Assembly: GCF_056746865.1 (NCBI RefSeq)
Contig: NZ_JBWKMP010000003.1
DNA from: a plasmid
Length of the DNA: 64,000 nucleotides
Direction: 5' to 3' (one strand)
Positions within the stretch are counted from its first letter, which is position 1, and each line of letters starts with the position of its first letter. Made by a program: the position numbers and the translations under genes. Below, piece after piece: positions 29,512-42,660 of this stretch. A model generated the notes under the pieces. That model was not told where the DNA came from. It did not search any database and saw only the letters and a program-made list of their open reading frames with translations.

Positions 29512-29747
29512 TCAACTCAGTAGCTTTGTTAACTCCCTTAATACCAGGTAGAAGAGTAACAAAAATACTAACGCCAGTATTTGCGTGGTCAACGAGGCGT
29601 TCATAAACAGAACAATTAGCTTTAACAATTCGAGAATAACGTCCATGTCATTCACACTATTTAATTTTTAATCTACAGCCAGCAAACAATGAAGCTGGCC
29701 CCCGCATAAAGATTAATGAAAGTCACTTGTCACCAGTGAGGGGATTT

Positions 29748-29846
29748 ATGAACCACATCCCCCTGAACTGGTGGACTGTCTGTTTCTCGCATTTCACACC
29801 CTGCATACAGTTCCCCCCAGGTTATGACTGTGAGGAACTGTTATGA
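29748..29846 (+). CDS. possible 32-aa coupled leader ORF
   Basis: GAGGGG Shine-Dalgarno 4 nt upstream. The stop overlaps the ATG at 29843 (ATGA). Confidence 0.3.
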   Translation: MNHIPLNWWTVCFSHFTPCIQFPPGYDCEELL

Positions 29847-30172
29847 GTTACAGCAGGCTCGACGATCGATGCATTGAAGACGATGTGCTGCGCGCACTAT
29901 TCCATCAGGAGATGATCAAGCGGGTATCGGAGTACCACTCCGATAATTTCCAGTACACGATAAAAATTGATGAGGTTTATCGCTCAGACCTGGCGGCCTA
30001 TCGCGCCTATGGCAACGCTGATTTGCGCTGGGTATTTCGCGTGCTGGTGGGCCATGAGTCAGAAATGGAAGAAATGCCGGTCGGGACAACGTTAACTCTT
30101 CCTGACGCAGCATGGCTAAGAAACAAGATTCGCGATTACGCTGGCTCGGCACCGGAGATAGAAAATGCCTGA
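29843..30172 (+). CDS. tail protein X-like (LysM-like) protein
   Basis: 109 aa. YRSDLAAYRAYGNADLRWVFRVLVGH...PVGTTLTLPD resembles the P2 gpX pattern. Confidence 0.45.
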   Translation: MSYSRLDDRCIEDDVLRALFHQEMIKRVSEYHSDNFQYTIKIDEVYRSDLAAYRAYGNADLRWVFRVLVGHESEMEEMPVGTTLTLPDAAWLRNKIRDYAGSAPEIENA

Positions 30173-31361
30173 CTTCCTGAAAAATCAGGACGGGCGATAT
30201 ATCACTGACGGCCTGTCCTCTAAGGATTTCACACGCGTATTTGAACTCATCAGGAAAGAGCAAAACCGCAAACGCCGCCAGGCGAACAGGACACTCACGC
30301 CGGGCAGGCTTAGGAATAAATCAGCCGAAGACATTCTTAAGCTGGGGAAAAAGAAAGGCGGCACGTTCTTTACGCGTGACGATCTGAAAGGCTTCGAAAA
30401 GCTGCGAAGCAAAGCACGCGAAAAATATGACAGCAAGACGGCTGGCATTACATACGCACAACTGGTAGCGTCCAGCCAGGCTATCGATATTAAGCGAGCA
30501 AATAACGCCGTAGACGACGGTTCTGGTATCAAAAGAGCTACGCCCGTATCTCTTCGTCACAATGTGATTAATATCCGCGTGGAAGCGTCCGATATATCCG
30601 TTCACCAGCACCACATTGTCCGGGTACGTTTTGAAGAATGGGATCAGATGGTCGATGACATCGCAGAAGACGATAAATCAGCCCTGAAAGTCACAAAATC
30701 ACTGTGTGCCGGGCGAGTGTCTTTCGACTGTGACTGCGGTCGCCATCAATACTGGTATCGCTACATCGCCACTGCGGGTAACTTTGCCCTGGCCCCGCCA
30801 AAAGAATACGCCTATCCAAAAGTTCGCAACCCTAAGCTGCAAGGCGTCGCCTGTAAACATGTGATCCACTCAATGACACGACTACAGTCTGCCAGTTGGC
30901 AGATGAGTATTGCTCGTGCGCTACAAAAGGCTGCAACGCAAATTGCATTTGGTGACGATCGCCGCCGTACAACCAAACACTTCTCAAAAGAAGACGAGAA
31001 GGAGTTTAATCGCAATCGTAGCAGTAAAACGAACGTTGAAGCCGCCAAACGCGAATGGAGGCTCTATCAGAAGCGCCAGGCAGCTTTAAGTACAAAACTG
31101 GCGAAGGACAACGGCAAGATCGACAAGCTACGTGACCAACTGACCAGGGCCAGAAAGTTGTCAGACGCACAGAAAAAACGAGCGGCAGCAAAAGAAGCGG
31201 CCTTGCAACGTGAGAAACAGAAAAACAAGGAGCTTCAGCAACGCCTTGCCGATCAGTTCGCACTGAAGAAGCAGGCGTTCATTGATGCGCTGGTCATGGC
31301 AGGAACGTCACCTGGGCAAGCTGAAAAAATGTTTATGGAGTACGTGAAGAAAGGTTCTTGA
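30165..31361 (+). CDS. SWIM zinc-finger protein with basic coiled-coil C-terminus
   Basis: 398 aa. CDCGRHQYW...GVACKHVIH fits the SWIM pattern CxC...CxH. The C-terminal 110 aa are K/R/Q/A-rich coiled coil. Confidence 0.55.
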   Translation: MPDFLKNQDGRYITDGLSSKDFTRVFELIRKEQNRKRRQANRTLTPGRLRNKSAEDILKLGKKKGGTFFTRDDLKGFEKLRSKAREKYDSKTAGITYAQLVASSQAIDIKRANNAVDDGSGIKRATPVSLRHNVINIRVEASDISVHQHHIVRVRFEEWDQMVDDIAEDDKSALKVTKSLCAGRVSFDCDCGRHQYWYRYIATAGNFALAPPKEYAYPKVRNPKLQGVACKHVIHSMTRLQSASWQMSIARALQKAATQIAFGDDRRRTTKHFSKEDEKEFNRNRSSKTNVEAAKREWRLYQKRQAALSTKLAKDNGKIDKLRDQLTRARKLSDAQKKRAAAKEAALQREKQKNKELQQRLADQFALKKQAFIDALVMAGTSPGQAEKMFMEYVKKGS

Positions 31362-31395
31362 TTGACAACAAAGGCGGTCATACAGACCGCCGAAC

Positions 31396-31755
31396 TCATA
31401 CACCAACCAGGCTTTCAAGAGGAATGCCAAACTGGGAATGTAAACGACGAATCATAGGTAACGTTAAATTTCGTGTTCCATTTAGCACTTCGTAAACACG
31501 ATTTGACTTACCAATCGCCGGTTCCAGATCCTTCACGGTCAGCCCTTGCTGTTCCATACGGAATTTAATGGCCTCAATAGGTGATGGTGGCTCAATTGGG
31601 TAATGTTTTTTCTCGTACTCCTCAATGAGAAGACACATGACCTCAAAGAAATCACCTTCCGGGGTGTTCATTTCCGGTTCGTTATCGAACATCGGTTCGA
31701 CCGCACGCAGTGCGGCCTCATAATCTTGTTCTGTACGGATAGGTTTAATGTTCAT
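31396..31755 (-). CDS. orphan HigA(YgjM)-type antitoxin-like HTH protein
   Basis: 119 aa from MNIKPIRTEQDYEAAL. N-terminal helical domain plus a C-terminal XRE HTH (GKSNRVYEVLNGTRNLTLPMIRRLHSQFGIP), as in E. coli K-12 HigA. No cognate toxin lies directly upstream. Confidence 0.65.
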   Translation of the reverse strand: MNIKPIRTEQDYEAALRAVEPMFDNEPEMNTPEGDFFEVMCLLIEEYEKKHYPIEPPSPIEAIKFRMEQQGLTVKDLEPAIGKSNRVYEVLNGTRNLTLPMIRRLHSQFGIPLESLVGV

Positions 31756-31772
31756 TAATTCCAAAGGAAAGC

Positions 31773-31797
31773 CCACTTGTTAAGTGGGCTTTTTGTA
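31773..31797 (-). terminator. stem-loop between higA and the orphan antitoxin gene
   Basis: AAAGCCCACTT / AAGTGGGCTTT inverted repeat with flanking T run. Confidence 0.45.
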
Positions 31798-31811
31798 TGT
31801 GTTTAACTATA

Positions 31812-32150
31812 TCAGGCTGCTTTTTTATTCAGGTTCCGCTGAGAAATAAATTTTTCAGCAGTATTGATACGACTTAACTCTTCCTGAACGCGCATATCAT
31901 TTTCGACTTCCCACAGGTCTACTGCGGTCTGAAGATTAATCCAAAAATCTACAGAAGTATCGAATGCTTTTGCCAGGCGATATGCCATATCCATCGTTAG
32001 CTTACGATTGTTATTAACAAGAGCACTTACGGTGTTACGATGAACATGAAGTATTTCTGCTAACTCGTTGATCTTAAGCTCTAACGGCTCCAGGTATTCG
32101 TACAGCAGGATATCACCTACAGTCGTCGGTTTTCTGGTTGCCTGTTTCAT
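31812..32150 (-). CDS. higA: HigA antitoxin (XRE HTH)
   Basis: 112 aa. TVGDILLYEYLEPLELKINELAEILHVHRNTVSALVNNNRKLTMDMAYRLAKAF. Confidence 0.85.
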   Translation of the reverse strand: MKQATRKPTTVGDILLYEYLEPLELKINELAEILHVHRNTVSALVNNNRKLTMDMAYRLAKAFDTSVDFWINLQTAVDLWEVENDMRVQEELSRINTAEKFISQRNLNKKAA

Positions 32151-32221
32151 TTTTTGCCCTTACTAGCGTGCGTATTAAGTGGACTCTGGTCAGTACCTGG
32201 CCCATCCGCCGGGTATTTGTT

Positions 32222-32524
32222 TTAGTATTTGTGAGGGTCGAGATACAAGTCCTCGGCCTTTCCGTTAACCCACTTAAAAATTAACCTGTATTGCTTATTC
32301 ACCCTTATTGATGAATAGCCGTTTAGCTTCCCTGACAATTCCTCATACCGATTACCTGGTGGTGATCTCAAGTCCTTCCAAGTAGTTGCAGCATTGATAA
32401 TATCCAGCTTCCGCAACAATGTAATCTGAATATCAGAAGGTATCTTTTTGTGTGGTATTGAAAATTCAAAAAAATCATCAAGCCACTCATCCCTGAAATT
32501 CTTTATGTTAATCTTTTTGCTCAT
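32222..32524 (-). CDS. higB: HigB toxin (RelE/ParE superfamily, plasmid maintenance system killer)
   Basis: 100 aa. ...DLRSPPGNRYEELSGKLNGYSSIRVNKQYRLIFKW... Toxin-first gene order, typical of higBA. Confidence 0.85.
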   Translation of the reverse strand: MSKKINIKNFRDEWLDDFFEFSIPHKKIPSDIQITLLRKLDIINAATTWKDLRSPPGNRYEELSGKLNGYSSIRVNKQYRLIFKWVNGKAEDLYLDPHKY

Positions 32525-32675
32525 CGATCATTTTATCCTCCATGATTATTAATGAATGTCATAATGATAGCGCACTGTTGCACCGTGCGCAAGTGCATAT
32601 TGTAACAATTCCCCTCCTCCATCCAAAATCACAATCTCCCGAAAATCTTCCTTTCGATACCTGATAAATCGACCT

Positions 32676-33482
32676 TTGAGGACGCTTATGGGCCGTTTTG
32701 ATGAATGGCTTGCTGATGATGCAAGCCTGATGAGAAAGGGAACAGAACATGACAGCACGCAGAGAGAAGAGACAACGACGGTTGAAGCGAATGAAGGAAG
32801 CACAACGGAAAATGGGAAGGTCAGTACAGGGCCATTCAGTATTCTGGAAGAACACGCTGCCACCGAAGCAGATAGCCGCCATGATAATTGGCCTGATAAT
32901 GCTGGTGACTCTGTTACGGAAGTGATTGAACCTGACATCGCCCCCCTACCGGCATCGCTCGCTAACAGAGAACCAAACCAGCAGCTTAAAACCCGATATA
33001 ACGGACACAAAGCGTTCAACGACCAGATCCGCGCCGATTGGATGCTCATTATTGAATCAAGCCCTGACGCATTCGAGGCGCTTTTATATCGCCCGGCTGA
33101 TGGCACCTATGGCGTCGTAAACGATGAAACAGGTGAAGAGTCATTCACGCAACTGGACAACAACCAGCGTGAGCTTACCTATCTGGAACCGGAAATCGTA
33201 TACGTCCTGGACAACCCGGACGGAAGGGATTCGTTTCATGCCATTGATGCCGATGGAGAACAGGATGGTCTTGCTGATGAAGTGCTAATCCTGCGTATTG
33301 CTGCAAACAACGTACCTGTTGGTTCAATCCTGGAATGGAACGAAGAAATGGCGAATGGCCTCGCCCGCCGCTGGTGGTACGTGCACCGAATCTTCAGCTA
33401 CGGAACACAACACGTCGGCTCCCTTTATTACTGCATCCCGGCCAGGAACTTTGATACCACTCAAAACGGAGTGATCGAATGA
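32676..33482 (+). CDS. acidic hypothetical protein (virion-module context)
   Basis: 268-aa ORF (TTG at 32676 or ATG at 32688). ATGA-coupled to the next gene. Confidence 0.5.
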   Translation: MRTLMGRFDEWLADDASLMRKGTEHDSTQREETTTVEANEGSTTENGKVSTGPFSILEEHAATEADSRHDNWPDNAGDSVTEVIEPDIAPLPASLANREPNQQLKTRYNGHKAFNDQIRADWMLIIESSPDAFEALLYRPADGTYGVVNDETGEESFTQLDNNQRELTYLEPEIVYVLDNPDGRDSFHAIDADGEQDGLADEVLILRIAANNVPVGSILEWNEEMANGLARRWWYVHRIFSYGTQHVGSLYYCIPARNFDTTQNGVIE

Positions 33483-42470: not shown

Positions 42471-42660
42471 TGAGACACATTTGAGAAAGAATTGAATTTT
42501 ATATGAGAAAACAAAATAAGACCAGAAGTTAGATAGCGTAAAAAGCATCAAACAAGAGACGTAAGAGAGACGCAAAAGAGACTTAGATGATACATGATGT
42601 ACCCACGATACCCGTTTGAGACAAATCAGAGACAAATGTGAGAAGTAAGAAATCTGAAGA
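42471..42660. repeat. parC: parC-like centromere/promoter: (A/T)GAGAC hexamers phased at 11 bp
   Basis: AGAGAC at 42555, 42566 and 42577. TGAGAC/AGAGAC/TGAGAA at 42617, 42628 and 42639. One extra TGAGAC at 42471. The two triplets are separated by about 35 bp, upstream of parM. Confidence 0.55.

Follow-up and report, generated by a model that had tools for sequence, protein, structure and literature searches.

Three antisense genes in a phage-plasmid tail operon

Between tail genes 25 and 7 of a plasmid represented by contig NZ_JBWKMP010000003.1 (NCBI RefSeq assembly GCF_056746865.1), three genes are transcribed against the late operon, and the last of them encodes an antitoxin resembling HigA of Escherichia coli K-12. 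This orphan antitoxin gene is the subject of the present analysis. The window, i.e. the whole stretch of DNA analyzed, comprises 64,000 nucleotides (nt) and belongs, judging from its sequence, to the lineage of the D6-like, P1-related E. coli phage-plasmids. Phage D6 matched the region at 87.5% identity, and E. coli plasmid NZ_CP085065.1 at 98%. The three minus-strand open reading frames (ORFs; 31396–31755, 31812–32150, and 32222–32524) were found both in the ORF listing and by direct reading between the plus-strand genes 25 and 7, as a previous sequence-only reading of the window had reported. Since genes 25 and 7 are separated by only 3 nt in phage P1 itself, the antisense block is an insertion in the tail/baseplate operon that is specific to the D6 lineage. 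The earlier reading had likewise taken it for an insertion.

The first two genes form a complete higBA pair, and their earlier assignment held in domain searches. The gene at 32222–32524 (minus strand) encodes a RelE-fold HigB toxin of 100 aa (Pfam HigB-like_toxin PF05015, E = 1.2e-34), which matched the PDB entry 6f8s_B, a ‘putative killer protein’ (E = 7e-14), and was 75% identical to the chromosomal toxin encoded beside ybaQ in E. coli D7. The gene at 31812–32150 (minus strand) encodes a HigA antitoxin of the XRE type with 112 aa and a helix-turn-helix (HTH) domain near its N terminus (NCBIfam antidote_HigA TIGR02607, E = 7.9e-30; score 102.5, cut-off 47.7). It is YbaQ-like, with a match to E. 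coli YbaQ (PDB 2eby) at E = 1e-53 and 78% identity to K-12 YbaQ. Both genes lie on one strand, 71 nt apart and with the toxin gene first, which is the layout of plasmid-type HigBA (PF05015 and TIGR02607). The pair is very likely the functional addiction module of the locus. Compared with the plasmid/Proteus vulgaris-type HigBA systems (Rts1 family) and YbaQ, it is a regular member, unusual only in its location in a phage tail operon and in the stranded antitoxin behind it. Together with phd-doc, higA-higB has been listed as a post-segregational killing system of D6-like plasmids, on annotation only (PMC6799933), and the GenBank record of D6 annotates both antitoxin genes as HigA.

Upstream of the pair, the promoter region (32525–32625, minus strand) contains a candidate −35 element, TTGCGC (32592–32587), and a candidate −10 element, TATCAT (32569–32564), both read by eye; a consensus promoter scan called nothing in 32525–32625. 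An inverted repeat, GCGCAC-N9-GTGCGC (32570–32590), is a possible operator of the resident HigA. At its other end, the pair is followed by a terminator-like hairpin (31766–31797) with an 11-bp stem (centroid −15.5 kcal/mol, z = −4.0), confirming the stem-loop seen earlier between the second and third genes.

The third gene (31396–31755, minus strand) encodes a protein of 119 aa (WP_021551809.1), whose only Pfam match was a C-terminal HTH_3 domain (residues 63–115). The sequence-only reading had assigned it the architecture of HigA (YgjM) of E. coli K-12, and several lines of evidence bear this out. Searching PDB with phmmer, residues 6–112 aligned to residues 24–132 of K-12 HigA (5ifg_B, E = 2e-8), a match over the full length. 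The AlphaFold model (mean predicted local distance difference test score, pLDDT, 91.9) consists of seven helices, two long N-terminal ones and a five-helix HTH domain. In Foldseek, the top matches of the model were 6jq4, 6kmq_B, 6kml_B, and 5ycl; only HigA of K-12 and Shigella matched over the full length (about 120 columns, 29–32% identity), the remaining matches being confined to the HTH half. The HTH domain of E. coli HigA is likewise C-terminal (PMC7984235). The two proteins have the same two-domain architecture, with a sequence identity of no more than about 30%.

No partner gene was found beside the orphan, as had been claimed before. The gene is flanked by gaps of 56 nt to higA and 34 nt to gene 25, and a tblastn search with two cognate-type toxins of the Pfam family PF09907 gave a best E-value of 0.9 over the window and plasmid NZ_JBTZPF010000006.1 (89,790 bp), whose orphan gene and higBA cassette are 100% identical to those of the window. 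An overlooked small toxin gene can be ruled out by the size of the gaps together with the lack of PF09907-like sequence in the window and in the plasmid record. Promoter prediction called no promoter in the 56-nt gap, most of which is taken up by the hairpin, leaving no room for one. Downstream, the orphan gene ends at a second terminator hairpin (31373–31391, minus strand) with a 7-bp stem (−14.8 kcal/mol) and the T-rich tail TTTGTTGT.

A complete module in the same slot of sister plasmids

Homologues of the orphan of about 119 aa number in the thousands. In 71 of 80 homologue loci taken from species-representative genomes of Gamma- and Betaproteobacteria, a PF09907-type toxin gene was located directly upstream of the antitoxin gene; of the nine remaining loci, one is cut off by a contig end and is therefore uninformative. 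The upstream genes encode members of HigB_toxin (PF09907), the family of K-12 YgjN (Pfam E = 3e-34 and 5e-33), and the toxin stop codon is usually 0–5 nt from the antitoxin start. This pairing identifies the orphan's family as a genuine family of K-12-type antitoxins. As in K-12, where ygjNM was reportedly defined as higBA in an earlier study, the toxin gene comes first. Compared with these relatives the window contains half a module, without toxin, promoter, or operator. Complete PF09907-type pairs with about 80% DNA identity were also found in about 150 E. coli chromosomal places, e.g. in a lambdoid prophage of the O26:H11 strain 11368, and others on plasmids of 40–50 kb. Between prophage pairs and plasmid versions, the antitoxins were 94–95% and the toxins 89–90% identical.

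The sequence-only reading had proposed to look for a toxin gene upstream of the orphan in its relatives, and this comparison proved decisive. A tblastn search with the prophage toxin retrieved about 21 plasmids of 80–97 kb from E. coli, Salmonella, Shigella, and E. fergusonii, which encode a toxin 89–91% identical to the query. All three plasmids that were opened (NZ_CP069886.1, NZ_CP117014.1, and NZ_CP028198.1) carry toxin and antitoxin genes in the slot between genes 7 and 25. We refer to this state as type A and to the state of the window and D6 as type B. The type A layout was also present in seven IMG/VR contigs, and the upstream PF09907 toxin gene in the sister loci L088–L096 and L131. 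The antitoxin WP_021551809.1 is encoded both in NZ_CP069886.1, beside the toxin WP_021551810.1, and in the type B plasmid NZ_JBTZPF010000006.1; the orphan gene of the window differs from the antitoxin gene of NZ_CP069886.1 by 10 synonymous and no non-synonymous changes.

Alignment of the two types revealed sharp breakpoints. Homology extends from gene 7 to position 32626, is then interrupted by unrelated sequence, and resumes at the ATG of the orphan gene (31755). The type B-specific segment of 870 bp (31756–32625, minus strand) holds the promoter region, the PF05015 higB gene, the TIGR02607 higA gene, and the hairpin at 31766–31797, which every type B locus has and type A lacks. In type A, its counterpart contains a promoter (TTTACA-17 nt-TACCAT) and two palindromes, followed by the PF09907 toxin gene. 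The ribosome-binding site of the antitoxin gene reads GGAA in the window and GGAG in type A. No similarity was detectable between the resident PF05015 toxin and the displaced PF09907 toxin (E = 1.2). Plasmids of both types (L088 and L090 for type A, L003 and L004 for type B) share Rep_cluster_1704. In PLSDB, the type B cassette occurs in 91 plasmids versus about 21 with the type A toxin.

The palindromes of type A are part of a wider pattern. In most of 94 distinct upstream sequences of the family, the toxin ATG is preceded, at about 27 nt, by GTCCC-N5-GGGAC, whose position is constant, between a TTGC-type −35 element and a TAnnAT −10 element (loci L005–L153, e.g. L088:3956–3970). The sequences bearing it span Enterobacterales, Pasteurellaceae, Chromatiales, and Burkholderiales, and this conservation at a fixed promoter position across orders makes the palindrome very probably the operator of the orphan's HigA family. 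A second, weaker copy often occurs about 30 nt further upstream. Allowing up to one mismatch, no copy was found in the window (32525–32675 included) or in the 89.8-kb plasmid NZ_JBTZPF010000006.1, and the type A locus L088, used as positive control, has two. Copies with two mismatches numbered 15 in the window, with 15.9 expected by chance. A role of the orphan as regulator of another plasmid gene was rejected, given that the putative family operator is matched at chance level only across the window and the whole plasmid record.

We consider it highly probable that the orphan is the stranded antitoxin of a K-12-type higBA module whose promoter, operator, and toxin gene were replaced by another higBA cassette. 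The ancestral type A module would have comprised a sigma-70 promoter with GTCCC-N5-GGGAC in its spacer, the PF09907 higB gene and, 3 nt later, the gene for the 119-aa HigA. Type B would have originated when the 870-bp segment took the place of promoter, operators, and toxin gene, its end coinciding exactly with the antitoxin start codon. The incoming segment appears to be an unrelated, self-contained higBA with its own promoter region and terminator hairpin. Following the exchange, the orphan would be transcribed only by read-through of this hairpin from the new higBA promoter and translated from the weaker of the two ribosome-binding sites. The sequence-only reading had listed the remnant of a second module as one of several options. 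This option is the supported one, with the refinement that the toxin gene did not merely disappear: the adjoining higBA cassette took its place and that of its promoter and operator.

If expressed, the orphan should still bind and neutralize the PF09907 toxin of the sister plasmids, because its protein is identical to the type A antitoxin. It could thus neutralize the sister-plasmid toxin or the about 90% identical toxin of prophages of Shiga toxin-producing E. coli (STEC). Neutralization of K-12 HigB (YgjN) is unlikely, since the orphan is only distantly related to K-12 HigA. The resident PF05015 toxin shares no sequence relationship with the PF09907 toxin and should not be affected by the orphan, which presumably has no DNA target on its own plasmid either.

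Constraint on the orphan is relaxed. The ratio of non-synonymous to synonymous polymorphism (pN/pS) was 0–0.02 for toxin-linked antitoxins and 0–0.11 for intact type B orphans (L124 excluded). Changes private to type B comprised 14 non-synonymous and 24 synonymous ones, compared with 1 and 30 among changes of type A or shared by both (Fisher p = 0.0008). The gene was also inactivated repeatedly in type B and never in type A, by (i) a nonsense codon (L124), (ii) a frameshift (L133), and (iii) a 3′ deletion, the latter defining a class that retains an ORF of 66 aa with the N-terminal domain alone. Among the 112 plasmids of PLSDB with the antitoxin gene, 39 have it in full length. Subtracting the about 21 type A plasmids from this full-length total leaves about 18 intact type B orphans, with about 73 of 91 (about 80%) truncated. 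The orphan is thus a relic in the process of loss.

Several observations count against this account or soften it. The direction from type A to type B was derived from parsimony and from the canonical paired layout elsewhere, and not from a dated phylogeny. A ratio of about 3.5:1 would be expected under neutrality, far above the observed 14:24; constraint is relaxed but not absent, and some function of the orphan may be maintained. Type B orphans furthermore interleave with type A alleles, L003 differing from L088 by one synonymous change and L097 differing from L090 by two changes. Recombination with type A plasmids may keep refreshing the orphans and confound the selection signal; the same interleaving shows that plasmids of the two types meet. 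Finally, the large truncated class probably reflects the spread of a single event rather than many independent losses, because its members have one breakpoint and one orf73 allele in common.

Alternative roles of the orphan

Possibly, the orphan is kept as a useful antidote acting in trans. This proposal, which we hold only tentatively, adds to the relic origin and does not contradict it. Two forms can be envisaged. In the first, anti-addiction, type A and type B plasmids, which belong to one replicon cluster, would not coexist stably: in cells that keep type B and lose type A, the orphan would shield against the type A toxin, cells that keep type A and lose type B would be hit by the PF05015 toxin, and type B would win. 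In the second, counter-defence, the orphan would neutralize HigB of STEC lambdoid prophages or systems like PD-lambda-2 during infection by the phage-plasmid. The classic case of anti-addiction is the chromosomal ccd of Erwinia chrysanthemi, which protects against the ccd of the F plasmid. Antitoxins without a toxin abound in E. coli, and anti-addiction is commonly proposed as their role (PMC10790755); ybaQ of the K-12 chromosome is another orphan antitoxin. Compared with such modules, the orphan described here (i) is located on a mobile element and not on a chromosome; (ii) arose via substitution of the toxin by a complete cassette, with both states coexisting in the plasmid population; and (iii) is under relaxed constraint, its protective effect being putative.

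Several observations are compatible with an antidote. As with other orphan antitoxins, the gene lacks its toxin, and elements competing for the same range of hosts carry the cognate one. The protein is the very antitoxin of the type A plasmids, and the common replicon cluster 1704 points to competition for the same cells, in which type B is the commoner type. For the second form, near-identical complete pairs are available as targets on E. coli chromosomes, as in the O26:H11 prophage, and phage-borne orphan antitoxins that defeat toxin-antitoxin defence have precedent (bioRxiv 10.1101/2024.07.11.602962). The pN/pS of intact orphans is still well below 1. Against this stand the clearly weaker constraint than on toxin-linked copies and the loss of the HTH half in about 80% of type B plasmids, in addition to the nonsense and frameshift alleles. 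The gene has no space for a promoter, and a terminator-like hairpin lies directly upstream. Two gene copies were present in at most 7 of 258 E. coli genomes, so that co-residence with a chromosomal pair is rare.

PD-lambda-2, whose role in anti-phage defence is proven, contains a PF09907 HigB (Vassallo et al. 2022, PMC9519451). Its PD-lambda-2B component carries a C-terminal M78 peptidase domain (ImmA/IrrE, PF06114), and the system needs a third protein of the PF14350 family (PMC9519451). The orphan matched the PADLOC profile PD-Lambda-2_B over positions 1–119 of 402 (E = 6.7e-43), a match that fits the second form of the antidote proposal and corresponds to the HigA-like N-terminal domain. 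The orphan stops at 119 aa, at the terminator, and there is no PF09907 gene in the window or in the plasmid record. Membership in PD-lambda-2 was rejected on this basis, with only the HigA-like domain matched and both the peptidase domain and the PF09907 partner missing.

More speculative still, and somewhat less probable than the antidote itself, is that D6-like phage-plasmids swap addiction modules serially and retain the previous antitoxin as a memory of immunity. If so, type B would be immune to killing by its incompatible siblings, would impose a new killing of its own, and would displace them, and the near-identical STEC prophage HigB would be countered by the orphan as well. The retained antitoxin would decay only after the old type had become rare. 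In that case, plasmids of type A, of type B, and of the truncated type B class would capture different moments of a single sweep.

It is very improbable that the orphan acts as a third regulator of a tripartite higB-higA-HTH operon controlling the PF05015/TIGR02607 pair, comparable to PaaR in paaR-paaA-parE, although the sequence-only reading had included a third regulatory component among its options. The orphan gene has the same orientation as the pair, lies 56 nt downstream of higA, probably is co-transcribed by read-through, and has an intact HTH domain. Yet neither the type B promoter nor the rest of the plasmid contains the putative family operator, and a hairpin separates the orphan from the pair. 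Moreover, the three-gene arrangement is confined to D6-like plasmids, where it arose by replacement, and most plasmids with the cassette retained the pair while the HTH domain of the orphan was lost (about 73 of 91 truncated). Least credible of all is that the orphan serves as regulator or antitoxin of the membrane and coiled-coil protein of the downstream gene orf73, deleted in the window: orf73 does come directly after the HTH gene in D6, as it does in numerous plasmids of both types, but we rejected this reading because the two genes do not co-occur outside D6-like plasmids and each has been lost separately, homologues of the orphan being paired with an upstream PF09907 toxin gene (71 of 80) and no orf73 homologue being found at those or at prophage loci, some type A plasmids (L088, L093, and L094) lacking orf73, the truncated class keeping orf73 while losing the HTH domain, and a terminator hairpin lying between the two genes.

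The accessory slot and the series of plasmid types

In most relatives of both types, the antisense block has a fourth gene on the minus strand, orf73, which separates the orphan from gene 25 (L001:3093–3821 in D6, L002:3096–3833, and L004:3093–3821); it is absent at the corresponding site of the window (31362–31395). Its product of 242–245 aa has hydrophobic N-terminal segments and a coiled-coil-like C-terminal half. No Pfam or PADLOC match was obtained for it, the single match being PHROG 8191 (function unknown). The alleles of orf73 were only 36–66% identical within backbones that were 97–98% identical. In L002, the gene is bracketed by two similar hairpins (AAGGCGGT..CCGCC), one of which is retained in the window (31373–31391). 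The gene resembles a rapidly evolving cassette that comes and goes when the hairpins recombine.

Accessory genes oriented against the late operon occupy the gene 25/7 slot. On one side lies the late gene at 30165–31361 (plus strand), a homologue of P1 gene 25 (tail stability) with 97% identity to D6 orf74, itself annotated as ‘similar to P1 gene 25’, and 56% to P1 gp25. It had been described as a SWIM protein gene from the sequence alone. A CxC...CxH pattern is visible in its product (FDCDCG...ACKH), while Pfam gave no match at E = 0.01 or better and left the SWIM domain unconfirmed. On the other side lies the late gene at 32676–33482 (plus strand), a homologue of P1 gene 7 (tail protein); D6 orf69 is annotated as ‘similar to P1 gene 7’, and in RefSeq the gene begins 12 nt downstream of 32676, at another ATG.

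Among the loci compared (L001–L004 and L088–L144), gp7 occurred in two alleles with 98% and 79% identity to the window copy, and the PF05015 HigB in two alleles with 100% and 89% identity. The alleles of both proteins travel together among type B plasmids, and the gp7 alleles were found with type A as well as type B, which indicates frequent recombination around the slot. The hairpin at 31766–31797 scores as a terminator on the plus strand, where a T run follows the stem. With a plus-strand terminator at 31766–31794, late transcription leaving gene 25 would stop before gene 7, and genes 7, 24, 6, and 5 may therefore need a promoter of their own. A candidate place for it is the stretch of about 60 nt upstream of gene 7 (32626–32690) that is common to types A and B; the P1 genes are contiguous.

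Some D6-like plasmids carry a further RelE/ParE and HigA pair between the mat gene and gene 26 (L003:880–1451 and L100:5880–6110). This site, only some hundred bases away from the gene 25/7 slot, constitutes a second place for accessory genes; at 29512–29842 of the window, no such pair is present. Plasmid NZ_JBTZPF010000006.1 is also annotated with a Thoeris anti-defence Tad2 family protein (L155:41136–41711) and DarA antirestriction proteins (L155:14419–16958), all encoded ahead of position 42493 of the record, at which the window's first 200 nt align. According to these annotations, the phage-plasmid lineage carries dedicated counter-defence genes.

The resident cassette has counterparts on E. 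coli chromosomes. Chromosomal ybaQ of E. coli K-12 (L158:1208–1549) has no toxin gene beside it, and in most E. coli chromosomes only the antitoxin part of the cassette was matched; some strains, e.g. D7 (L159:1194–1873), retain the toxin. The chromosomal orphan antitoxin YbaQ may thus blunt the plasmid's own addiction module.

Taken alone, the gene at 31396–31755 is an ordinary orphan antitoxin beside an ordinary higBA pair, and its fold and family are known. Counts of working toxin-antitoxin systems should leave it out, and GTCCC-N5-GGGAC can serve as a conserved mark of the intact modules of its family. Most useful is the natural A/B series around it, in which one slot exists in three states in near-identical, incompatible phage-plasmids, i.e. 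(i) the whole old module, (ii) the old antitoxin with the new module, and (iii) the truncated antitoxin with the new module. We found no description in the searchable literature of whole, swapped, and decaying states coexisting in one plasmid slot. The series provides a ready-made system for asking whether toxin-antitoxin modules act mainly in the competition between mobile elements, and whether leftover antitoxins confer cross-immunity.

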